DNA from: Candidatus Poribacteria bacterium
Lineage (GTDB): Bacteria; Poribacteria; WGA-4E; WGA-3G
Direction: 5' to 3'
Assembly (NCBI GenBank): GCA_964291315.2
Contig: OZ219753.1
Coordinates: forward strand, 224,001-288,000
Length of the DNA: 64,000 nucleotides
Positions 15,063-29,897 of this stretch are shown piece by piece. A program made the translations under genes and the position numbers. Each line of letters opens with the position of its first letter. The first letter of the stretch is position 1. Below the pieces are notes generated by a model. It was given only the letters and a program-made list of their open reading frames with translations. It did no database searches and was not told the DNA's origin.

Positions 15063-16994
15063 ATGAGAGAAGATGAACTTCCGAAATCGCACGGTGTCAC
15101 ATGGAAATCTATTGCTATTACACTCGTGTTGATTCCGTTTAATTTCTATTGGATCATCGCTGGCGAAGTCGGACTCGTCGGTTACGCGTTGAATACGTAT
15201 GCGGTGCCTTTTTATAACGTTGTCTTCGTTGTATTTGCTTTTACCCTCCTCAATCTCGCGCTTCGCCGCCGCTTATTCACCGATGCGGAACTCCTTACAA
15301 TATATATACTGCTCAGCACAGCTTGCACGTTCCCTTCTATTACGTTGATGACGATCCTCGTCACGACTGTGGGGCATGCTTTCTGGTTTGCTACTCCGGA
15401 AAATGAGTGGAGGCAGCTCTTCTGGGATTACCTTCCGAGGTGGCTTCTTGTGGACGATCCTAAGGTATTGTGGGGATACTATAAAGGAGAATCCAATCTT
15501 TCTACACTAGACATCATCGGCGCATGGTTAGTTCCGGCGTTGTCTTGGGTAGGTTTCATGACGGTTATAGTTCTCATGATGTTATGTATCAACGTCATCT
15601 TACGAAAGCAGTGGGTCGAACGAGAACGCCTCGCGTATCCCATCACACAGATAGCGTTCTATCTTACCCATAACACAAAATCCCTGTTTGCGAGCCGGGT
15701 CACATGGGTGGGTTTTGGCGTTGCAGCGGGCATTGCGATTCTCAACGGCTTCAGTTTTCTGTATCCAACCCTCCCTACTTTGCCTATTAAGCGTATCGGG
15801 GGTTGGCATGGTTTTGGACATCTGTTCACCGAAAAACCGTGGAATGCTATCGGGGCGATCAGTATGTCCTATTACCCCTTTGTCATCGGCCTTGGGCTTT
15901 TGATGCCGTTAGACCTCTCTTTCTCGAGCTGGTTCTTCTTTATCTTCTATAAGGCACAATTGGTGCTTACAAGTGCAGCTGGACTTTCTAGCCTGCCCGG
16001 ATTTCCGTATATTGATAGACAATGTTTTGGGGCAGCTATCGGGATTTTTATCTTTGTGTTTGGGCTGAACCTGCGCCATTTCCGCGGAGTCCTCCGGATT
16101 GTCTATCGCGGCACAGGGGAAGATTCTGACGAGCCTATTCCGTATGGGCTGGCATTGTATGGTATCGTTGGGGGACTCATTATACTCTTTATTTTCTCTA
16201 AGCGGATCGGTATGTCGCTCTGGTTAATTCCACTGTTTTTCGCGATCTACTTTATCATTGTCTTAGTACTAACACGCATGCGCGCCGAACAAGGGTTTCC
16301 TGTGCATGCAATGGAAAATATGCCGAACCATCAGATCCTCGTTGACGCTTTTGGGACACGGATGTTGGGCACAAACAACCTTGTAGCCTTGACGCTCTAT
16401 CGTTGGTTCAACCGCAGTTACACAAGCAATCCGATGCCACATCAGTTAGAAGGTTTTAAGCTCTCGGAACGTTCTAGCATCGCACCGAGGCGACTGTTTC
16501 TTGCATTATTAGGGGTTTCCGCATTTGCTGCTGTGATGGTATTTGCCGTTATCCTCTACCTTTTTTACACGTATGGTGCGTTAAACATGAGTGGTGGCAG
16601 CAGCTGGTCAACCGGTTTTGGTGGGCGTGTCTTCAACGGACTTCAACGTTGGTTCTATTACCCCACAGAACCCAATTTTTATGCCACCGGCGGTATCGTA
16701 TTCGGTTTACTCTTTTCAACGTTCTTAATGTTCATGCGAGCACGTTTTTTTTGGTGGCCCTTTCATCCGATTGGGTTCGTCGTTTCAAGCGATTGGGGTA
16801 TGCGGTATTTATGGAGTTGTATGCTCGTAAGCTCAATTATCAAATGGAGTGTTTTGAAGATGGGTGGATCGCGCTCATCACAGCAATTGGTGATGTTCGC
16901 GATCGGTTTGATGTTAGGTGATTTTACGGTGGGCGGTCTCTGGAGCCTTGTAAGTGTGGTGACGCAGCGACCGATGTACAATTTTTGGCCATAG
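15063..16994 (+). CDS. Polytopic membrane protein, DUF6785/DUF6784-like (OPT-related putative transporter)
   Basis: Many TM segments, ILRKQWVERERLAYPI and WWPFHPIG motifs. Confidence 0.7.
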   Translation: MREDELPKSHGVTWKSIAITLVLIPFNFYWIIAGEVGLVGYALNTYAVPFYNVVFVVFAFTLLNLALRRRLFTDAELLTIYILLSTACTFPSITLMTILVTTVGHAFWFATPENEWRQLFWDYLPRWLLVDDPKVLWGYYKGESNLSTLDIIGAWLVPALSWVGFMTVIVLMMLCINVILRKQWVERERLAYPITQIAFYLTHNTKSLFASRVTWVGFGVAAGIAILNGFSFLYPTLPTLPIKRIGGWHGFGHLFTEKPWNAIGAISMSYYPFVIGLGLLMPLDLSFSSWFFFIFYKAQLVLTSAAGLSSLPGFPYIDRQCFGAAIGIFIFVFGLNLRHFRGVLRIVYRGTGEDSDEPIPYGLALYGIVGGLIILFIFSKRIGMSLWLIPLFFAIYFIIVLVLTRMRAEQGFPVHAMENMPNHQILVDAFGTRMLGTNNLVALTLYRWFNRSYTSNPMPHQLEGFKLSERSSIAPRRLFLALLGVSAFAAVMVFAVILYLFYTYGALNMSGGSSWSTGFGGRVFNGLQRWFYYPTEPNFYATGGIVFGLLFSTFLMFMRARFFWWPFHPIGFVVSSDWGMRYLWSCMLVSSIIKWSVLKMGGSRSSQQLVMFAIGLMLGDFTVGGLWSLVSVVTQRPMYNFWP

Positions 16995-20937: not shown

Positions 20938-22422
20938 CTAACGCCCTTCGTCAGCGATAATAGAGCCTGGCATGATGTAATGTTTCCCTTTGGTTAGTTG
21001 CGCAACTCTGCGTTGGAAATTATCCGAAATTGAGCTGCTTCGCATAGAGGTGACGCCCCCTATAACATAAATTTTTGCGAACGTCCCTCGGCACACTGAA
21101 ATCGCTTGCCTTACGGTATACCCTTTTTTGGTACGCTTGCTTGTTGATTCATCTGTAACAATGATAAAAACAAGATCGCGCGATGAGTCGATTCGAAGTT
21201 TCGGTATACCCTCAATTACAGCATCTAATAAATGTTCATCACCCATTTTGGGAAGACGAAAGAGGGATTTCACTTGCTCGGGTTCCAGGGGTGGGTTGGT
21301 CACGACAACAGTACTTTCGCCGCCCCCAACTGCTGCCCAAAATCTGATAATTCCAAACCTATAATCCAATCCTGCTGACTTAAATACAGAAACCATCTGA
21401 TCCAAGCCGTCACAGGCAGCATCGGTTTTCGTTTCCATGCTTAGGCTGTAATCGAAGATGAACACAACATCTATTTTTTGCAGATGACTTGCAACCAGGT
21501 TTTCCGCAATACGCTTGAATATACCGTCTAAGCGGAGTAAGGCTTTATCTGCTATTGTATCTCCACTCCGGATCCGTTGTCCATCTATCCGTTGCTGCTT
21601 TGAGTCAATAGGATACCATTTTCCGGCTGTTTCATCTGTAAGCTCCGCTTGGACCCTCTCACTAATACCGATAAAATTGATCTGAACATTGTTTTGACGG
21701 GATCGGCTGATAATTTGATTACTAATTTTGTTTTTCGCTTTTGCGTCTGTCCATGAGGTCCGTATGCGTGAGTTGGTAACCACGACAAATTGCGTTGTAA
21801 CCTCATCGCGGAATTCCAATTCGTTCAGTCCCTTCACAACAGCATCAAGCCCATAGCCTGATCCGGTATTATTCCCCGATTCAACCCTTATATTTTGGAG
21901 TGTATTAACAATACTGAGATAGTCAAATGTCCAGGGATGAAGAGCCACGCGCGGTTCCGCTTGCACCGAGTGAAAACTTACCAGGGCGAATCTGTAGTCC
22001 ATCGTTTTTGCCTCTATAACAGTGAGCATATCAACGATTTTCTTTTCAAGGACAGAGAGATGTGCTCTCATCCGCCTACTACCATCAACCACAAACACGA
22101 CATCTATCTTCGGAGTTTGGGCGTGCTGTGTTGTCCGTTGTGCAATATCTTTGAGACTTGCACCTATATCTGCCTTTAATACCCTCTTTTTTTCTTTGGC
22201 ACTTTGATCTACCATTATTCTGTGTCTTCGGCGAGGGGGGCGGATCTGTGCCGATGCTTGCAGCGTGCCCACTACTATACTCATTACACACAAGCAACAT
22301 ATCCAAATTTTTAGATGCTGCTTACAGACCAAAACTTGCATGATAAAAGCCATATTATCTCCAATCAAAATTCTGTATGAAAACCTGATGCACTTAGCAA
22401 ACATTTCTGTAGTAAACATCAA
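20938..22422 (-). CDS. Exported protein with two tandem vWA domains; true start probably near 22353
   Basis: IDVVFVVDGSRRM and IDVVFIFDYSLSM; VVTN/IVTDE; signal-like segment ending ASA-Q. Confidence 0.75.
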   Translation of the reverse strand: MMFTTEMFAKCIRFSYRILIGDNMAFIMQVLVCKQHLKIWICCLCVMSIVVGTLQASAQIRPPRRRHRIMVDQSAKEKKRVLKADIGASLKDIAQRTTQHAQTPKIDVVFVVDGSRRMRAHLSVLEKKIVDMLTVIEAKTMDYRFALVSFHSVQAEPRVALHPWTFDYLSIVNTLQNIRVESGNNTGSGYGLDAVVKGLNELEFRDEVTTQFVVVTNSRIRTSWTDAKAKNKISNQIISRSRQNNVQINFIGISERVQAELTDETAGKWYPIDSKQQRIDGQRIRSGDTIADKALLRLDGIFKRIAENLVASHLQKIDVVFIFDYSLSMETKTDAACDGLDQMVSVFKSAGLDYRFGIIRFWAAVGGGESTVVVTNPPLEPEQVKSLFRLPKMGDEHLLDAVIEGIPKLRIDSSRDLVFIIVTDESTSKRTKKGYTVRQAISVCRGTFAKIYVIGGVTSMRSSSISDNFQRRVAQLTKGKHYIMPGSIIADEGR

Positions 22423-22602: not shown

Positions 22603-23619
22603 CTAATATGTATCTAAGTCAATTTCTTCTTCGCTAAACCGCAGGTGTGCTTGATTAATGAGCTCAACAATAGCTGTCCACTGCTTCTGCGTTTCATCAG
22701 ATGCACCTTCTGTCTCAAGCAATTTAGCAAACTCAAGGAGAGTTTCGCTAAACTTATTTTGTAGGTAGACATACTCCTCAGTCTGATCTGCATTCTTCGG
22801 AGGCTCGAAATCCGAGATGCTCTTGGCATATTTGGCTAGGCGTTTTGCTGCCTGAATAGCTTCTGTTTTGCTCTCTTTTTCCTCGAAGTAGTCCATAATG
22901 ACAAAATAGTCGTCTATCATCAACGCCATGAGGGCTTTTAGGTCTTCGACCTCGGGTATCTGTTCCGTTGGCGTATCCGGCTCTGGTGTTTTTTCTTCCT
23001 CAAGGCTCGGCTTGTTTTTTCTGAAGAGGGCGTAACTCATTACCAACGCCTTCTTTGGAATCAAAGCGACAGCGTTTGAGGCATCCTCATGTCCTTCAAT
23101 GGCTGTAACGTCTTTCTTAACCTTGAAAAGATTATCTATCCCCATACCGACGAACTGTTTGAGAAATGCCTCTTCTGCAATCGCGGCCGACTCCTTATGG
23201 CGATAGACTGCTATTTTCACAACCTTTCCTTTCATATCCAATCCAACGGCCCCTTCAATTACACCCTGGGGCCCCTTGCTATCGGAAAAAAGCACTAAGC
23301 CCATCGGTTTCTTTTCGTTGTTGATTGGAATGTAGAAAATCGGTTTCAGATCTGTTGTCCGAAGCTTCGTTCCCAGTTTTTCCTCAATTGCGGTGATTTT
23401 CGCTGGGCTGAGTATAACACTTCGCTGAACAAAACGTTTGGCTTTTGGAAACATAACCGCCAGCTTTTGCTTTGGGTATTCTGTTTCATGTGTGTCGCTA
23501 AGTAAGGCAGGGCTTAAAAGAAAAAAGGCAAACGCCAACAAAATACCTATATAGTGTTTATAGCGTTGGCGGTAGATTGGGGCGAGAAATTGAAAACAAA
23601 TCAAATCCCGGGGTTGCAT
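22603..23619 (-). CDS. Exported FMN-binding-like domain fused to a C-terminal four-helix bundle (cytochrome c'/b562-like)
   Basis: KGPQGVIEGAVGLD..G.V and FLKQFVG resemble FMN_bind; Pro/Glu linker; helical tail ending LINQAHLRF. Confidence 0.65.
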   Translation of the reverse strand: MQPRDLICFQFLAPIYRQRYKHYIGILLAFAFFLLSPALLSDTHETEYPKQKLAVMFPKAKRFVQRSVILSPAKITAIEEKLGTKLRTTDLKPIFYIPINNEKKPMGLVLFSDSKGPQGVIEGAVGLDMKGKVVKIAVYRHKESAAIAEEAFLKQFVGMGIDNLFKVKKDVTAIEGHEDASNAVALIPKKALVMSYALFRKNKPSLEEEKTPEPDTPTEQIPEVEDLKALMALMIDDYFVIMDYFEEKESKTEAIQAAKRLAKYAKSISDFEPPKNADQTEEYVYLQNKFSETLLEFAKLLETEGASDETQKQWTAIVELINQAHLRFSEEEIDLDTY

Positions 23620-23623
23620 TATA

Positions 23624-23701
23624 TGCCTCCGTGAAATTAAAACGCAAGAACGCCCGATACCGAGCGAAACTTGCGTTTTGTGCCTCCGTGAAATTAAAAC
23701 G
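23624..23701. repeat. 21-bp direct repeat flanking a hairpin
   Basis: TGCCTCCGTGAAATTAAAACG at 23624-23644 and 23681-23701; hairpin AAAACGCAAG...CTTGCGTTTT at 23639-23679. Confidence 0.85.
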
Positions 23702-24746
23702 AATAGGTTGTAGTCAAAGAAACCAAATTGCCAAATTCAATCGCATCCCCTTCATCATAAAGCGTCTCTTGCGTCAGCGGAATCATCACGTTGGCAGACA
23801 GGCTCATATCGGTCAGTATTTTCAAGGATACACCGAGTGCTGCCATGCTGTAACGTAGACCTGTATTAATGTCCTTCTCGCCAGCCCAGGCAGCAGGGGA
23901 CTGGTAAAGGCCGAGATAGTTTGCATTAAATGTGAACTGATCGAAAAGGCGATATGTCCAACCAGCTGTATAGGTTAACTCTATTGGAGCCCTATAAGTT
24001 TTGCTGTTCTCGTAGATAGGAAACGTTCCACGGCCGGAAGCAGTAAGCGTCATACCTCGGTAGAGCGGTAGACTATACTGCAGACTGGCAGTAGGATTAA
24101 AGGTGCCAGTACCAAACTGGATATGAAGGTGTTCAATACCTGCATCTCCAAGTTTCCACGGATTTTCTTCTGTTTTGCCGGTTGGAATCGTCGCCCCTAA
24201 CCGAGCAAACAGCGTGTCATCTGTTCTAAAAATGCCATGGCTTTTATAACCGAAGAACAGATCTGAATCCGAGAGACCGGTATAGGTTTCATCTCGATGA
24301 TGGATATCCCTACTCCGCAAGATCGCTTGCTCATCTTCAACATTGACTGGGTCAATCCATTCAATGCTTGCGTCTTGATCCTTGACTGCATACGGAATGT
24401 TTGCTTGTAAAAACCAGCGAGCATTAAGTAAGTATTGTAAGCCAACATCAATTCGGTAAGTACTCAAAGTTACACGGTGCCTATGCAAAGGCACGTCTAT
24501 CACTTCCCCTATTGTTGACAACCCTGTCGATGCTAGATGTCCGCCTCGCGCATCGGGGGACATTAACATATTGACATTTACTCGAAATTGCGCTGTCTCT
24601 TTTGAAGTCAAACTGACTTCACTCATCAAACCGCTTGGCGGTAAGACGGGATTGCTTCACGCAGGACAACTCTCTTGTGCGAAGCCGACAGAAATAAAAA
24701 TCCAATTCATTAACAGCGCGTATAAAAACGAACGTATTTTCGTCAT
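23694..24746 (-). CDS. Outer-membrane beta-barrel ('transporter'-type), candidate selenoprotein with TGA at codon 30 in a CxxU motif
   Basis: ATG at 24746 after AGGATGG; MTKIRSFLYALLMNWIFISVGFA-QESCPA(TGA)SNPVLPPSG continues in frame into ORF 23694..24629; PTGK and QFGTGTF motifs; C-terminal TYSF. Confidence 0.75.
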
Positions 24747-24919
24747 TTGTAACCATCCTAATAAAGTATTGTAATGCAGCGAAACACAAGACGCTGCACC
24801 ACAGATTTCCAGCACTAACTTTTATTGTGAGACAGTGCGGAAAAACAGGGTATAAGAATTTCTAAAATAACGGATAGGTGCGTTTGATTTGAAAGGCACC
24901 TTAGGGAGTCTATCTACCG

Positions 24920-25354
24920 CTATGTAGACGGAGGGCCTCTACGGGATAAGAAAAATTCGAGGTAAAATATTGATGTTAGAGGGTCGGAAAGAGGCTCAAG
25001 GCGGTATCGGGGCAGGATAAGCGAACTTGCTGAAATAGGAAGGATTGAAACGGGGACGTATCCAATCAATTCAGGGGAGCCAGATGTGTTGTACCTATCG
25101 TCTGGAAGCACAAGCTCTAAGTTGGTAGAGCAACACAATTTCCTACTTTCTGATGGCGCACTCTCTCCATCCGCAGCGTCTGCTTCGCTTCCGGAGCAGC
25201 AACTTGCGCGAATTTTTACATCCCCATTCAGAAATTTTTGAGGAGATCCGGGACAGAACCGTTGTCCGAAAGCCGTACAAAGAAGCGGGCATACCGAATA
25301 AACGTACAATAGGCCTACAAGTAGGATGAGAGCTTGTCGATGTTTCTGCGACAT
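24920..25354 (-). CDS. DUF2946-like Cys-rich leader protein with C-terminal RGPP
   Basis: N-terminal hydrophobic segment, CPLLC, SCC, LCC, ends SRRGPPST. Confidence 0.65.
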   Translation of the reverse strand: MSQKHRQALILLVGLLYVYSVCPLLCTAFGQRFCPGSPQKFLNGDVKIRASCCSGSEADAADGESAPSESRKLCCSTNLELVLPDDRYNTSGSPELIGYVPVSILPISASSLILPRYRLEPLSDPLTSIFYLEFFLSRRGPPST

Positions 25355-25648
25355 TTTTGTTTAATAACTCCGCTGTTTCGTCAGGAAAGTGGGAACGAAG
25401 TAAACGTTTTGTGATATTATACACCAAAATCTCAAAAAGTTGCAAAAAAACATTTAACTATCTGACACACCAAAAATCTACATGTATTCCAGATTGCAAA
25501 ACTACCTAACCAACACATCGGCACTCCGGGATGATGACTGACGTAGGTGTTTGCAAGCGTTTGCATTGAAACTTGCTAAATGGAGATTTAGAGTACCTAA
25601 CCGCTATAGCGTTCGTGCATTAGGAAGACACAGCTTCCGGCGATTCGG

Positions 25649-27049
25649 TTAAACCTCAACGCGGACGAAAGTTAAATAACTGCCTAACAGAAGCACGATG
25701 AGAAATAGCACTAACAGCAGGAGTTCTGTCGCTGTGCTATCAAAATTGCGCGTCAGACTGCGCGTGTCCTCAAAGACCGGGATGGATTCTGGGATGACAG
25801 CTCGCTGCGACATGCCCTCACGAACCCCTACAAAGTGAAGACTCTCTGGATCTGCCTTGTCGGTATATACGATGAATTCCATGTACTCACGCGCGTACCG
25901 CTGGGCGTTCTCTAAAAATTGAAGATGCCGTTCGAATCCTGTGGCGGCGAACGATTCTAGGAGGTAATGGAAAATCGCAGCGGGCGAAATACGCGTGATG
26001 GAACGCGCACGTTTCACCTGGGCAACCTGGCGGGCTAAGTGTTCATCAATTAAACGTTGCTGTGTCGCTACGTCTTTGATGACATAATCACTTCCGGCCC
26101 GCATATTTTCCTGCTCAGACCCACCCAATGTGTTCCAGTATTTCTCTACTTGTTCTTCATTAACTTGCTTTTGGCGAGCTCGAAGTTCGTCAGCAGACAT
26201 CAAGGGGGCTCGCCTACTAGCAATGGAGGCGAGAAGGTTGGGCGTAAAAACCACAAAGGTAACCCAGGTCAGCAGAAGTATCACTAGTGCTACTACGCTT
26301 CGGCCCACACGCGCCGACACAAGCAACCCTAACGCCAGAAAAATACACATATAAAGAAGTGTAATGCAGTATATAATACCCAAACGTCCCCAACCAGAGG
26401 CACTAATATGAACCGTACTTGCCGTGGAGATCACCAATAAATTCATCAACACAGCAAACGTGAAGGGGATGTTAAGTGTGAAGAGGGCCCCTAAAAATTT
26501 GCCAACTAGCACTACATGGCGCGGCATCGAATTCGTTAGCATCAGTCGCAGCGTACCCCGCTCACGCTCGCTAGACACCGAATCAAAAGTTAACAACAGC
26601 GCGACCAGGCTCAAGATATAGCCGCTGATGAACCCCCAATCCACTTTCATAACCGCTGGTCGAATATTTGTCAGATTCGGGGTAGCAGGTGGATACACCA
26701 TTCGCCAGAAACTCTTTAGATCCCCGTTTACCCAAACATGGTGTTTCCCTTGAACGGTATCTGGCAAAAAGGTATCGCTGCTTGCTGCACAGAAATGGAG
26801 GTCCGAAGGTTTTTTGTAAAGTCTTCCGGGGCCTTGACGCGCTAGTTCGTACAGACTGCCCGTGAGTGTCTCTAAAGCGTTGCGGGCCTCCTCGCTAGCG
26901 GTGAGATACGTTTGTAAGCGCGCGGGGTGTTCTTGCAGATGCACGATGGCGTTCGTCAACATTAATCCCAACAACAGTGCGGTCGTGAGTCCGAATCGGA
27001 GGTTATTGAGGTTGTCATAGAGTTCCCGTTTTGCTATATGCCAAATCAT
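25649..27049 (-). CDS. ABC-2 type transporter permease
   Basis: MIWHIAKREL, DSVSSERERGTLRLML, GKFLG, ISP motif. Confidence 0.85.
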   Translation of the reverse strand: MIWHIAKRELYDNLNNLRFGLTTALLLGLMLTNAIVHLQEHPARLQTYLTASEEARNALETLTGSLYELARQGPGRLYKKPSDLHFCAASSDTFLPDTVQGKHHVWVNGDLKSFWRMVYPPATPNLTNIRPAVMKVDWGFISGYILSLVALLLTFDSVSSERERGTLRLMLTNSMPRHVVLVGKFLGALFTLNIPFTFAVLMNLLVISTASTVHISASGWGRLGIIYCITLLYMCIFLALGLLVSARVGRSVVALVILLLTWVTFVVFTPNLLASIASRRAPLMSADELRARQKQVNEEQVEKYWNTLGGSEQENMRAGSDYVIKDVATQQRLIDEHLARQVAQVKRARSITRISPAAIFHYLLESFAATGFERHLQFLENAQRYAREYMEFIVYTDKADPESLHFVGVREGMSQRAVIPESIPVFEDTRSLTRNFDSTATELLLLVLFLIVLLLGSYLTFVRVEV

Positions 27050-27057
27050 TTTTTTCG

Positions 27058-28578
27058 TTACGTTACTTCTCTTTTGAGAAAAATCAGAAATATTATGATA
27101 AATAGAACAACATTGATTATCAGGAGTAGAAACTGATCAGGCATAGCACGTTTCGCATTTATTCGGATGTCGCTTCTCTGAAAAGTGAATTGGGGGAGTG
27201 TGCTCCAGTCCGCTGCCTCTTCGTGTGCAGTGAACCACTGTGGAGACTCGAACGTTTTTCTATCGTATAAGTAACCGATCACTGTGTTTCTGTATTGTCG
27301 AACCGCCTCGAAAAAGTCTTGATTCCCTTTTAAACCGGTACCTGCCCAGGCTTGGGTTGCCGAGTCGTATATCCCTATTGGAGAAAGTTTGAGCCAGTTT
27401 CTATCAACTACAGCTGGGCGCACGAAGATATCATGGAGCGCAGATTTTCGAGTGATCCAGGTTCGATCTGCTGTGTTAATAACCCGGGGTACGAGGAACC
27501 CATAGTAATTTTGAACGACGGGTATCTGGGGTAGGTATCTATCGTAGAGTTTGTTAAAGTATATTACACTCCAATAGTAATAAGCCAGGGTCGATCGGTC
27601 TCCGCTAAACCCATCGCCGCCACCCCCGCCAGCGGGCCCATCCATGTTAAACATCGGGTCCTCCCCCGGGGCAGTATCAGTTTCGAGAAAGCGTTTCCGC
27701 TCTCTCTCAAATTCTCCCCATATCTGTTTGATTTGATGGTAAACCGCTGATGTACGTGTTTTCGGGGGGGCAATCGGATTTATTGTCGCGAGGATCATGT
27801 TCGGATAGACTAGCACCCAAAATACCCAAACGAACATGCACATAATGAGGGTAGTGCTGGTGCTGCGCGTTATCGCTGAAATCAGCATGCCCATGAGATA
27901 GAATATTGACAGATACGCGATAGAAGCCCAAACAATTCCAGCAACCCGTACAAAATCATCGGACTTTAGGGAAATAGACGCGGATGTCACCATCAAAATC
28001 AGCGCAAAGATCAGACTCACAAGCAACGGAACAAGCAAGCAGAGCATCGCACTGACGTATTTTGCAAGCAGTATCGTCCCCCTACGGACGGGATGCGTCA
28101 AAATCAAACGTAAGGTGCCAGCTTCAATCTCTCCTACAAGAGCATCGTAGGCAAATATGAGTGCAAGTAGACTGAGAACGATCTCAAAAATAAATACAAT
28201 ATCGATCGCAGAGAAGATGTTGAGGAACGAGTTATGTAACCCATGCATCTCAGCGTCCCATAGCGAAGGCACAAATTCATGAGATACCAAGATTTCGTTC
28301 CCGATCCGTTTATCTAAGCCTGCATTGAAGATGCTCATAGGATTGGGGGGCCTGTCAACTTGCAGTTTTCTTATCCCCAATGAATAGGTTTTTGTATCGT
28401 GTACTTCTTGATGATGTGTTTTAACGGAGGTGTCGTAACTCGCTAACCGCTGATCGTAGTCATTGATGAGCACAAAAGTAGCAGCAACCACTAGCGTCAA
28501 CATAATAAAGACAGCTGCTACGAAACGGAAAGTCATCAGGTTGTCGAGGAGTTCACGCCGAATGAGTGGGATTAACAT
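27058..28578 (-). CDS. ABC-2 type transporter permease (paralogue)
   Basis: LIRRELLDN, YDALVGEIEAGTLRLIL, AKYVS, LSP motif. Confidence 0.85.
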   Translation of the reverse strand: MLIPLIRRELLDNLMTFRFVAAVFIMLTLVVAATFVLINDYDQRLASYDTSVKTHHQEVHDTKTYSLGIRKLQVDRPPNPMSIFNAGLDKRIGNEILVSHEFVPSLWDAEMHGLHNSFLNIFSAIDIVFIFEIVLSLLALIFAYDALVGEIEAGTLRLILTHPVRRGTILLAKYVSAMLCLLVPLLVSLIFALILMVTSASISLKSDDFVRVAGIVWASIAYLSIFYLMGMLISAITRSTSTTLIMCMFVWVFWVLVYPNMILATINPIAPPKTRTSAVYHQIKQIWGEFERERKRFLETDTAPGEDPMFNMDGPAGGGGGDGFSGDRSTLAYYYWSVIYFNKLYDRYLPQIPVVQNYYGFLVPRVINTADRTWITRKSALHDIFVRPAVVDRNWLKLSPIGIYDSATQAWAGTGLKGNQDFFEAVRQYRNTVIGYLYDRKTFESPQWFTAHEEAADWSTLPQFTFQRSDIRINAKRAMPDQFLLLIINVVLFIIIFLIFLKREVT

Positions 28579-28934: not shown

Positions 28935-29897
28935 ATGCCATATGTCAAGATTCCAAAGGAATGGGAAATCCCCGAAGATCCGGTAACGTCTGAGGTAGAC
29001 TATATCAATCGCAGGAAATTCATCAAAGATTTAGGCTTGGCGAGTGCAAGTATGTTACTTTTTTCCGGATCAAGTGCTTGTGCAGCTGAAAAGGGAGTTG
29101 AGAAACAGTTGGCTCCCTTCCGTGCCCAAGGCCTTGCTGCTGAAAAGAACTCTGCCTTTGCTGTAAATAGGAAAATGACTGACGAAATAGTTGCTGCTAC
29201 CTACAATAATTACTATGAGTTTACTATGTCTAAGCGGACTGTTTGGAAAAAAGTAGAAAAATTCAGAACACGTCCGTGGGAGGTCGAGATATCAGGGCTC
29301 GTCGAAAAACCGATGACTTTGGACGTAGATGACTTAATCAGACAGATGCCACTCGAAGAACGTGTCTATCGGTTCCGTTGTGTTGAGGCATGGGCAATGG
29401 TGGTACCTTGGATCGGCTTCCCGATGAAAGCACTGCTGGAAAAAGTTCAGCCGAAAGCCGAAGCTAAATATGTCCGAATGTTCACTTTTTTGGACCCCGA
29501 TGTCGCTCTTGAGCAAAACAACACGCGTTTACCGTGGCCCTATTTTGAAGGCCTCACACTCGCTGAGTCAATGAACGACCTGACACTGCTCACTGTCGGT
29601 ATTTATGGGCATATTTTACCACCACAGCACGGTGCTCCCATACGGCTTATTGTGCCTTGGAAGTACGGGTTCAAAAGCATAAAGTCCATCGTCAGCATCG
29701 AATTGACGGATCAGAAACCACGCACTTTTTGGAATACACTTATGCCGAGAGCATATAGCTTTGAAGCAAATGTCAACCCTAACGTACCACATCCGAACTG
29801 GTCGCAAGCTAGCGAGAGAATGATTGGGACTGGAGAAAGGTTCCCGACGATGATTTACAACGGCTATGGGAGCTCTGTCGCGCACCTCTATCCCTAA
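28935..29897 (+). CDS. msrP: Protein-methionine-sulfoxide reductase catalytic subunit
   Basis: Tat motif NRRKFIK, YNNYYEF, RFRCVEAW, GAPIRLIVPWKYGFKSIKSI. Confidence 0.93.
   Translation: MPYVKIPKEWEIPEDPVTSEVDYINRRKFIKDLGLASASMLLFSGSSACAAEKGVEKQLAPFRAQGLAAEKNSAFAVNRKMTDEIVAATYNNYYEFTMSKRTVWKKVEKFRTRPWEVEISGLVEKPMTLDVDDLIRQMPLEERVYRFRCVEAWAMVVPWIGFPMKALLEKVQPKAEAKYVRMFTFLDPDVALEQNNTRLPWPYFEGLTLAESMNDLTLLTVGIYGHILPPQHGAPIRLIVPWKYGFKSIKSIVSIELTDQKPRTFWNTLMPRAYSFEANVNPNVPHPNWSQASERMIGTGERFPTMIYNGYGSSVAHLYP

Follow-up and report, generated by a model that had tools for sequence, protein, structure and literature searches.

The open reading frame (ORF) at positions 23694-24746 on the minus strand of the window analysed here, the whole stretch of 64,000 nucleotides (nt) from the Candidatus Poribacteria assembly GCA_964291315.2 (contig OZ219753.1, positions 224,001 to 288,000), is interrupted by a TGA at codon 30. 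Sequence comparison indicates that this is almost certainly one full-length selenoprotein gene, encoding a secreted outer-membrane channel of this sponge-symbiont bacterium, and it is very probable that the UGA is read as selenocysteine (Sec). The product would be exported, lose its signal peptide after Ala23 and then fold into a predicted 12-stranded outer-membrane barrel. The mature N-terminus would form a flexible Cys/Sec arm, which seems to have been Sec/Sec ancestrally and is Cys/Cys in more distant relatives. We have good confidence in the explanation taken as a whole, in which a Sec gene, the export and fold of its product, a soft-metal function and regulation through an upstream leader are combined. 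The features of the gene are as follows.

23694-24746, minus strand: selenoprotein gene of 350 codons, with Sec proposed as codon 30; TAA stop at 23694-23696; homologues also have an in-frame TGA.
24756-24759, minus strand: AGGA, Shine-Dalgarno-like by its sequence and with that putative function, 9 nt 5' of the ATG (24744-24746).
24678-24746, minus strand: signal peptide MTKIRSFLYALLMNWIFISVGFA, codons 1-23, predicted cleavage GFA / Q24.
24666-24668, minus strand: TGT codon of Cys27, position 1 of the C-P-A-U motif; TGA in most other lineages.
24657-24659, minus strand: TGA, codon 30, probably read as Sec (position 2 of the motif).

The ribosome-binding site with its ATG, the signal peptide ending in GFA-Q, the ESCPA sequence ahead of the TGA and the 320 open codons between the TGA and the TAA, all proposed in the original prediction, were found at these minus-strand positions. 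The cleavage site was placed by eye; a hydrophobic N-terminal leader ending in a small-x-small pattern before Gln is common to all homologues. The mature N-terminus is Q-E-S-C27-P-A-U30-S-N-P. With translation table 11, the barrel ORF begins no earlier than codon 40 (TTG at 24629), its first Met is codon 41, and it has no signal peptide, which agrees with the earlier statement that the barrel lacks one unless the TGA is read through. This means that the truncated product could not be exported as a 12-stranded outer-membrane barrel.

This bears on the possibility that the TGA is a true stop, which would separate a 29-residue peptide from a barrel translated from an internal start. The Met codon at position 41 might provide such a start, and all 120 listed database proteins for the window gene begin after the TGA; they are 252-312 amino acids (aa) long, and the few that carry a name are called 'hypothetical protein' or, in one case, 'restriction endonuclease subunit S'. 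The invariant motif [U/C]xAUSNP, however, straddles the stop, and in Cys-type relatives the same N-terminus belongs to one full-length protein. Together with the loss of the export signal, these observations make a 29-residue peptide and a separate barrel very improbable.

The TGA itself is well conserved. Contigs from three runs of one study cover the site, and the TGA is unchanged in all three. One of the runs represents a diverged strain, for which seven differences are listed over 241 nt, all outside the TGA; two of the three runs are near-identical, and this assembly may derive from them. Homologues were found in 54 of 61 related genomes, and 87 of the 88 matches listed for these genomes at E <= 1e-60 contain one or two in-frame TGAs, the exception being a fragment that begins at residue 70. 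Forty-one copies were fetched. All of them have Q-[E/D]-[S/A]-[U/C]-x-A-U-S-N-P right after the signal peptide, and position 2 is TGA in all 41. At position 1, a Cys codon (TGT or TGC) is found in 20 copies, the orthologues of the window gene (C-P-A-U); 19 copies have TGA there (U-G-A-U), and the remaining two have TGC (C-G-A-U and C-S-A-U).

A set of the 80 best loci from named genomes (75 Candidatus Poribacteria and five 'uncultured bacterium') contained the motif with the position-2 TGA at 79 loci, and the remaining locus was cut by a contig end. By type, 53 of these were C-P-A-U (39 TGT, 14 TGC) and 26 were U-G-A-U. When 121 genomes sampled from the phylum were searched, 100 matched at E <= 1e-20 (81/81 in family f1, 9/9 in f2, 6/19 in f3 and 3/3 in f4), and no match at this threshold was found in four more distant families (0/8). 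The gene usually occurs in two copies within the window's own family. One to three TGAs are contained in 149 of the 150 matches listed from this sample, the exception being a truncated copy with a TAA; two single-TGA copies from f3 are C-A-A-U and C-G-A-U. Homologues that keep the TGA cover an identity range of 35-79%. Since the TGA is unchanged even in the diverged strain and is conserved in all homologues examined, its presence reflects more than chance, and it is not specific to this assembly, a point on which the original prediction might have failed.

An in-frame stop 29 codons into a gene nevertheless resembles a nonsense mutation, and the TGA might be regarded as such a mutation, or as an assembly error, in a pseudogene. 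Broken copies do occur in relatives. One U-G-A-U copy (L217, G099:C5:4200-5776) has a third TGA at a conserved Trp codon (MMR-U-FDAQ), and one second C-P-A-U copy (L218/L123, G108:C1, about 3202250-3203826) is a truncated fragment with a TAA; these are genuinely damaged copies and show how decay of this gene looks. The codon-30 TGA is different in that every homologue readable across the motif has it, the signal peptide stays in frame with open codons down to the TAA, and the contigs of the three runs agree. A preponderance of TGT or TGC at codon 30 in close relatives would favour a mutation, and none was found. A pseudogene is therefore extremely improbable.

Cys-containing homologues were found outside this group. 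A profile search of 1.84 billion representatives gave 510 matches at E <= 1e-3, and 16 that cover the N-terminus were fetched. In fourteen of these full-length representatives, both positions are Cys (for example C-P-A-C-S-N-P or C-A-A-C-G-N-P). The other two (P0163 and P0166) have Trp at the motif (W-G-A-W and C-S-L-W); these are presumably gene calls under a TGA=Trp code, which give spurious full-length 'Trp' variants. A metagenome scan led by the Cys-type protein (six closer sequences) gave 67 loci, and the motif type was read for 50 of them, the other 17 being not resolved: 20 are C-P-A-C, 10 U-P-A-U, 17 U-G-A-U and three C-P-A-U. A tblastn search with the Cys-type protein gave no match in a plasmid collection. 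BLASTP aligns the window protein with the Cys-type protein P0127 over 348 aa (38% identity, E 1e-79), placing C-P-A-U opposite C-P-A-C, and the hhalign profile-profile probability is 100%. Thus, Cys stands at the codon aligned with codon 30 both in the metagenomic C-P-A-C loci and in the full-length representatives, as expected of Cys homologues of a Sec protein in the original prediction. The Cys-type barrels, which come from marine and sediment metagenomes (P0127 and L146-L169) and are named only 'hypothetical protein' in their sources, have the same length, signal peptide, N-terminal motif and six histidines as the window protein. They differ from it in having Cys at both positions and no structured RNA after the motif.

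A FastTree tree of 61 rows was calculated with the motif residues excluded and was rooted at its midpoint. The C-P-A-C lineages branch first, and the 40 Sec-bearing rows all group in a single clade (support 99), at the base of which the U-P-A-U lineages branch without resolution. The Poribacteria forms are one clade (support 100). The window's C-P-A-U group is a clade (support 100) inside it, with the family-level U-G-A-U paralogue as its sister group. All members of the Sec clade that were read have Sec at position 2. This topology fits an ancestral UxxU motif that arose from one change of Cys to Sec at both positions, and it fits several later and independent reversals from Sec to Cys at position 1 only. 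From these sequences, Cys27 of the window protein is taken to be such a secondary reversal. The midpoint root of this FastTree tree and its long outgroup branches count against this order of events. The original prediction described CxxU as a replacement of CxxC. The aligned Cys homologues agree with this, but the ancestral Sec form would be UxxU, and Cys at position 1 would be secondary.

The genome of the window (G000; four contigs, 4.40 Mb, 95% complete) contains the selA, selB, selC and selD functions without which the original prediction could not stand. The tRNA-Sec gene scored 78.1 bits (cut-off 47) and adjoins selB (SelB-wing_3, 69.9 bits), selA scored 515 bits, and selD (C4:721940-722863) scored 357 bits (cut-off 125). 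SelD has its own in-frame TGA, in the motif K-C-A-G-U. Other selenoprotein genes of this genome are located at C1:527462-528376, C4:2252959-2254065, C4:1108533-1109177, C4:1113296-1113727 and C3:361661-363277. Their products include a thioredoxin (Trx)-like W-U-G-W-C protein with TPR repeats, two AhpC/peroxiredoxin (Prx)-like proteins (W-U-P-F-C and T-U-G-I-C), an HMA protein (G-M-T-U-G-S-C) and a WD40/PSCyt1 protein (L143) with an HMA-like G-M-T-U-Q-A-C at its end, which is labelled HMA from this motif as read by eye. Their sequences suggest that they carry N-terminal hydrophobic export signals. Pfam bears out the family assignment for four of the five Sec-gene candidates scanned. It should be mentioned that this genome scan is no census, as its thresholds missed selD and the barrel gene.

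ARAGORN found 47 tRNAs, and the UCA anticodon occurs in tRNA-Sec only. TGA terminates 376 of the 1,781 ORFs of at least 300 aa in this genome, which means that it is not globally reassigned. These results are relevant to the possibility that the UGA is read through, but as Trp or Gly, or by near-cognate suppression. The Trp residues of P0163 and P0166 might seem to favour such a reading, as a reflection of TGA=Trp gene calling. The UGA is, however, a normal stop here with a single cognate UCA-anticodon tRNA, and at the aligned position relatives have Cys, which is chemically analogous to Sec, and never Trp or Gly. In addition, a conserved structured element follows the UGA in TGA-bearing genes only. 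Insertion of an amino acid other than Sec is thus most improbable.

SelB and Sec-tRNA(Sec), recruited by this element, would decode the UGA at codon 30; the part played by its two hairpins is putative. In the window they are the following.

24622-24650, minus strand: hairpin 1 (HP1), with outer stem CCCGUC/GAUGAG, internal loop, inner stem ACCGC/GCGGU (24630-24642) and triloop CAA.
24603-24621, minus strand: hairpin 2 (HP2), UGAAGUCA-GUU-UGACUUCA, with its loop 43 nt downstream of the UGA; synonymous variation is at its gene-wide minimum here.

HP2 lies directly 3' of HP1, and the two-hairpin element is within codons 33-49. The triloop of HP1 begins 19 nt after the UGA. The hairpin CGUC-UU-ACCGC-CAA-GCGGU-UU-GAUG of the original prediction is indeed the predicted minimum free energy (MFE) structure, with the loop at this distance. 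HP1 and HP2 together (62 nt) have a folding energy of -20.9 kcal/mol (z = -4.26), which was equalled by none of 200 dinucleotide shuffles.

All Sec-type genes fold into two adjacent hairpins that start 5-10 nt after the second UGA, also in cases where the stems consist of different nucleotides. In 73 C-P-A-U sequences (44 distinct), 91.4% of the cells are paired, compared with 25-38% when the partners are slid. This set contains 12 double-sided changes, including C-G / U-A / G-C at the pair of alignment columns 12 and 36, and its covariation score was reached by none of 500 shuffles; the structure used in this test was specified by the analyst. In 47 sequences of the U-G-A-U type (44 distinct), HP2 is 90% paired, with compensatory changes at five of its eight pairs. 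HP1 of this type has two registers that share the 3' arm and are 80% and 87% paired; where one register is broken, compensatory changes restore the other. Among 46 distinct orthologues, the normalised entropy of synonymous codons is 0.51 outside codons 31-49 but 0.17 within them (Mann-Whitney p = 6e-6), with a minimum of 0.02 over HP2.

As a negative control, the 63 nt after the motif were folded for each group and compared with mononucleotide shuffles. The 14 Cys-type genes have no common structure (mean MFE -13.4, mean z -1.2, 14% below z = -2). The corresponding values are -28.0, -2.6 and 78% for the U-P-A-U genes, -20.3, -2.2 and 50% for the U-G-A-U genes, and -20.1, -2.6 and 77% for the C-P-A-U genes.

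The bacterial selenocysteine insertion sequence (bSECIS) model, as given in the available text of PMC13188914 and its Fig. 2, has a loop of 3-9 nt on an upper stem of 4-16 bp with an MFE <= -7.5 kcal/mol, a G at position 1 or 2 of the apical loop (N1-G-[G|U]-N-N2), and a spacing of 16-37 nt between UGA and loop (PMC13188914). The loop, stem and energy values of both hairpins are within this range: the inner stem of HP1 has 5 bp and a 3-nt loop, and HP2 can be drawn either with 8 bp and a 3-nt loop or with 7 bp and a 5-nt loop. The element is like the consensus in being a coding-sequence stem-loop just 3' of the UGA, in the loop pattern of HP2, in the spacing of HP1 and in an MFE far below -7.5 kcal/mol. 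It is unlike the consensus in that loop pattern and spacing are split between two adjacent hairpins.

Several observations at this site count against the Sec explanation. Neither hairpin alone has all four bSECIS properties. The spacing of HP1 fits, but its CAA loop in the window contains no G; orthologues with CGA in this loop do have one. The HP2 loop, A-GUU-U, is canonical, but its 43 nt from the UGA exceed the 16-37 nt of the model, and the distance is still 40 nt in the shorter variants. From a mixed alignment of 41 sequences, RNAalifold recovered only HP2; HP1 was missed because it pairs in different registers in different lineages. An Rfam search around the site at E <= 10 gave no SECIS or other family, save a chance snoRNA match, and nothing in the whole window reached a gathering score. 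As for the SECIS-like hairpin of the original prediction, its covariation and spacing hold up, but its loop has no G, and the canonical G-U loop is that of the second hairpin.

The other Sec genes of this genome allow a comparison. The SECIS candidate of selD is GCUCC-AGG-GGAGC with its loop at +21, and that of the Prx-like W-U-P-F-C gene is CAACUC-GUU-GAGUUG with its loop at +25. The second Prx-like gene and two HMA-type G-M-T-U-x-x-C genes have similar short stems. Short stems with G-containing loops of 3-5 nt thus seem to be the SECIS style of this organism, which agrees with the hairpins at the barrel gene. HP1 might serve as a spacer which, once folded, places the base of HP2 beside roughly position +12.

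The fold of the product was predicted by AlphaFold2 from a 21-sequence alignment (mean predicted local distance difference test score (pLDDT) 79.3, predicted template modelling score 0.74). The model has 12 long strands between residues 54 and 349 and two short helices in loop regions. According to this model, the product is a 12-stranded FapF/COG4313-like outer-membrane barrel with a flexible N-terminal arm that carries Cys27 and Sec30. Residues 13-31 and 39-50, including the Cys/Sec arm, have pLDDT < 50, which weighs against reading the arm in detail, as its placement relative to the barrel is unreliable. The best PDB matches in Foldseek are FapF (E 8.9e-14) and the COG4313 channel Pput2725 (4rl8, E 2.9e-11), with target-normalised TM (template modelling) scores of 0.64-0.71 (0.71 for 4rl8) and identities of 11-14%. 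Pput2725 (4rl8) and FapF (5o65/5o67) are 12-stranded barrels of similar mature length, and in the available text of PMC4493636 the N-terminal segment ahead of strand 1 of Pput2725 occupies the lumen.

Sequence families are less informative. The window protein does not reach the cut-off of PF13557 (21.7 bits against 22), five of 21 family members match this model at E <= 0.01, and atlas neighbours of the window protein carry PF13557. NCBIfam release 20.0 gave no match for the window protein (P0001, E <= 0.1) or for P0127 (E <= 1e-5), and a PDB sequence search with the family profile gave no match at E <= 10. Both motif positions, the following N-P and six histidines are invariant across the Sec- and Cys-type alignments. 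The histidines are H70 (G-G-H), H90 (H-x-H), H149-H150 (H-H-R-x-E), and H206 and H208 (H-x-H-x-Q-x-G).

These structural matches raise the possibility that the protein takes up a hydrophobic or organic substrate as a channel of the COG4313 type, in which the Sec arm merely gates or plugs the lumen, as the occluding N-terminal segment of Pput2725 might suggest (PMC4493636, in its available text). The weak PF13557 match and the PF13557-bearing atlas neighbours are in line with this, and so is the position of a paralogue of the U-G-A-U type directly upstream of an Opp/Nik-type ABC importer. This paralogue is in the same genome, outside the window (G000:C4:674618-675694, plus strand; L035/L136), and has two Sec codons and 56% identity. 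An aldo-keto reductase flanks it in 26 of 26 loci, and the paralogue is followed by an SBP_bac_5 (Opp/Nik-type) binding protein in 25 and a permease in 24. The locus looks like an operon of an outer-membrane channel and an ABC importer, the layout of an uptake route; OppA- and NikA-like NCBIfam models were far below their cut-offs for this importer. On the other hand, no catabolic genes for hydrophobic substrates were found beside any copy examined, the PF13557 match stays below its cut-off in the window protein and is found in few family members, and the invariant His, Cys and Sec residues are typical metal ligands. Members of the COG4313/FapF group also differ from the window family in moving hydrophobic molecules or amyloid subunits, and the known ones, by our own reading, seem to have no Cys/Sec motif or His cluster. 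A channel for organic substrates is thus quite unlikely.

We lean, with some caution, towards a function in metal handling at the outer membrane, where the protein would capture a thiophilic ion similar to Cu(I) or Hg(II) and hand it over. This soft-metal function is favoured because genes for an HMA-thioredoxin fusion (HMA-Trx), MerTP, MerA, CsoR and P1B ATPases adjoin the barrel gene in relatives. Counts of upstream genes refer to loci with at least 900 nt of upstream flank. The HMA-Trx gene is directly upstream in 14 of 16 C-P-A-C loci and in all eight U-P-A-U loci, and at L165 both domains were found by tblastn. These partners keep ordinary Cys motifs even beside a Sec-type barrel. MerTP is found in seven Cys-type loci (the L146 copy with 298 bits, NCBIfam cut-off 180) and MerA in two (the L146 copy with 493 bits, NCBIfam cut-off 454). 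CsoR-type repressors occur in seven Cys-type loci, P1B ATPases in four, ArsR-type regulators in two, and MbnP and MbnH in one. HMA selenoproteins (GMTUxxC) are also present in the window's genome. Distant barrel homologues are fused to HMA, to thioredoxin via long His/Asp-rich linkers, or to a cupredoxin-like domain. In such a function, the selenolate arm would work with the six invariant histidines of the barrel and its loops in metal hand-over.

The C-terminal fusions were seen in P0222, P0225, P0244, P0235, P0269 and P0135. One of the six has HMA, four have a His/Asp-rich linker and thioredoxin (W-C-x-P-C), and one has thioredoxin and a weak cupredoxin-like domain. Several of the fused homologues start abruptly with V or L and may be cut at an upstream TGA or a contig end.

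Some results weigh against a metal function. It rests on relatives at about 38% identity, and there are no mer or cop genes in the window's own neighbourhood, which encodes a pair of ABC-2 permeases but no ATPase for them, as well as an FMN_bind membrane protein, a VWA protein and, divergently, a molybdopterin oxidoreductase. The merA, merT and merP genes were not found beside the window gene or any Poribacteria copy. The HMA-Trx gene is upstream in none of the 16 U-G-A-U loci and none of the three C-P-A-U loci, and this genome has no clear HMA-Trx homologue, with only weak Trx matches (E 1e-5).

Alternatively, the protein might be a selenoprotein whose Cys/Sec arm is a redox catalyst (thiol-disulfide or peroxide), with the thioredoxin of the relatives as its reductant. 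CxxU and UxxC are typical of redox selenoproteins in the available text of PMC13188914 and PMC9312934, the partner in relatives bears a WCGPC thioredoxin domain, and the other exported selenoproteins of this genome include Trx- and Prx-like ones. An FMN_bind membrane protein is also encoded 74 nt downstream; it could be a periplasmic electron donor for the arm. Yet the partner always has an HMA metal-binding domain as well, the surrounding genes are metal-specific (MerTP, MerA, CsoR-type, P1B ATPases and MbnP), and the barrel, with its six invariant His residues, has no recognisable redox fold. A redox catalyst is therefore rather unlikely. The redox and metal functions are compatible, because thioredoxin domains commonly keep metal-binding cysteines reduced.

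In the window, a Cys-rich ORF precedes the barrel gene, and its putative role is that of an arrest leader.

24920-25354, minus strand: Cys-rich ORF of 144 aa with an N-terminal hydrophobic segment with C-P-L-L-C, and two CC pairs; candidate metal-sensing arrest leader.
24929-24940, minus strand: R-G-P-P, two residues before the stop of the leader.
24747-24919, minus strand: intergenic gap of 173 nt between the leader ORF and the barrel gene.

This ORF is upstream in 53 of 53 C-P-A-U loci and is the sole conserved neighbour of the window gene. The leader precedes the barrel at 48 of 50 named and at all three metagenomic C-P-A-U loci; it was not found at loci of the U-G-A-U paralogue (0/26), at C-P-A-C loci (0/16) or at U-P-A-U loci (0/8). 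The gap between leader and barrel is 160-200 nt in 42 of 54 leader-bearing loci. A search for leader homologues gave 192 matches in all, 120 of them listed, with no Pfam domain or informative source name among them. RGPP is present in all 120 listed homologues, 2-5 residues from the end in 119, and its distance to the last C-C pair is 62-63 residues in all 120. A scan of 23500-25700 for promoters and terminators gave counts not above those of shuffles; one promoter-like site is upstream of the leader (25445-25416, minus strand), and no terminator-like site is between leader and barrel. One metagenomic U-G-A-U locus close to f3 (L179) has an upstream ORF segment of 151 codons between stops, with eight Cys residues and R-A-P-P at its end. 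These sequences suggest that this barrel family acquired arrest-type leaders on more than one occasion.

The leader resembles CruR (Bp2923, DUF2946), a copper-responsive upstream ORF of Bordetella pertussis which is followed, after a gap of 162 bp, by the gene of a TonB-dependent transporter. According to the available text of PMC9426467, copper sensed by the nascent chain of CruR relieves ribosome arrest and allows Rho termination. In the available text of PMC12992588, RGPP gives the most robust arrest among RAPP-like motifs, and small secreted proteins encoded upstream of TonB-related and Cu-related genes are enriched in RAPP and RGPP close to their C-termini. The window's leader and CruR both have about 145 aa, an N-terminal export-type segment, conserved Cys motifs, an R-x-P-P that lies 2-5 residues from the C-terminus and keeps a constant spacing to the Cys motif, and a gap of 160-200 nt before the gene of an outer-membrane transporter. 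They differ in the motif (RGPP against RAPP), in the spacing (62-63 against 45 residues), in the CC pairs and CPxxC of the leader against the single CXXC of CruR, and in the downstream gene, which encodes a 12-stranded barrel here and a TonB-dependent transporter for CruR. The leader is no detectable member of DUF2946 (PF11162) and has no Pfam match at E <= 0.1, which tells against kinship with CruR; DUF2946 was not found in this genome at E <= 1 either. The likeness is therefore a working analogy and not family membership. By this analogy, expression of the barrel is probably coupled to a metal signal by the upstream Cys-rich ORF with its RGPP, in a CruR-like manner.

These elements can be combined, tentatively, in a joint model in which a selenium-armed metal gate and a split SECIS come together with an RGPP leader that stands in place of the HMA-Trx partner; this combination is possible, and we give it less than even odds. 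The Sec arm would capture Cu(I)- or Hg(II)-type ions and pass them through a His-lined channel, and the barrel would be the first dedicated outer-membrane component of mer/cop-type soft-metal pathways. In the split SECIS, HP1 would fold away about 27 nt, so that HP2, with its GUU loop nominally at 40-43 nt, would be the true SelB-binding hairpin, and one element would serve two UGA codons 9 nt apart. In Poribacteria, the metal-sensing RGPP arrest leader would replace the periplasmic HMA-thioredoxin protein and tune synthesis of the selenoprotein.

The outer-membrane barrel GSU2204/MtrB-PioB belongs to the context of extracellular electron transfer. As family NF041027, it is the one outer-membrane barrel selenoprotein listed in PMC13188914 (2026) and PMC9312934 (2022), as far as their available text goes. 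It differs from the window family, which has no NCBIfam match, and no Sec motif is stated for it in that text. The original prediction held that an exported barrel selenoprotein would be unusual. The class is rare, as it supposed, yet it has a precedent, since GSU2204/MtrB-PioB is already catalogued. UxxU HMA-type metal-binding selenoproteins are also among the families in the available text of PMC13188914 and PMC9312934. NF041115 (UxxU HMA-type) and NF045683 (a MerT/CopZ fusion) are exported proteins with Sec for both Cys residues of a CxxC soft-metal site, and the genome's HMA selenoprotein L144 and the HMA-Trx partners score against NF041115. These are small soluble or inner-membrane proteins with the HMA fold, whereas the motif of the window protein is on the arm of a barrel with no HMA fold.

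The terms PF13557, phenol, Poribacteria, sponge and symbiont do not occur in the available text of the 2026 review PMC13188914, that of Haft's 2022 preprint mentions no outer-membrane selenoprotein, and that of the mer-gene survey PMC8261052 names no dedicated outer-membrane component. The window family is not in NCBIfam or in the available text of PMC13188914 and PMC9312934; the supplementary tables of large metagenomic surveys, which are outside this search, may list it. The gene adds a widespread and consistently mis-annotated family to the bacterial selenoproteome, with further lineages in marine metagenomes, and places Sec on an outer-membrane channel, for which one catalogued family is the precedent. 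CxxC, UxxU and CxxU form a clean natural series in which one can ask for what reason one position retains Sec while the other has lost it. If the metal function is true, the barrel would give mer- and cop-type pathways an outer-membrane step, so far missing from them. Real genes can escape SECIS searches that rely on a model, as the two-hairpin element illustrates, and the RGPP leader would be a second candidate example of metal-responsive translational arrest.

Other genes in the window were also examined. The gene at 22603-23619 (minus strand) starts 74 nt after the barrel stop and encodes the membrane protein with a weak FMN_bind/RnfG-like domain; it is followed by the VWA protein gene at 20938-22422 (minus strand). 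This pair is downstream of the barrel in roughly a third of the orthologous loci, often after an insertion of about 1 kb. On the other side, tandem ABC-2-type permeases (PF12679 and DUF3526; 25649-28578, minus strand), with no adjacent ATPase gene, are located between the leader ORF and the oxidoreductase gene (28935-29897). The permease pair looks like a genome-specific insertion, because the oxidoreductase gene is within a few hundred nt of the leader in most related genomes. Finally, a 643-aa ORF at 15063-16994 (plus strand) has DUF6785 (E 1.6e-147) and DUF6784 domains and is unrelated to the barrel gene.

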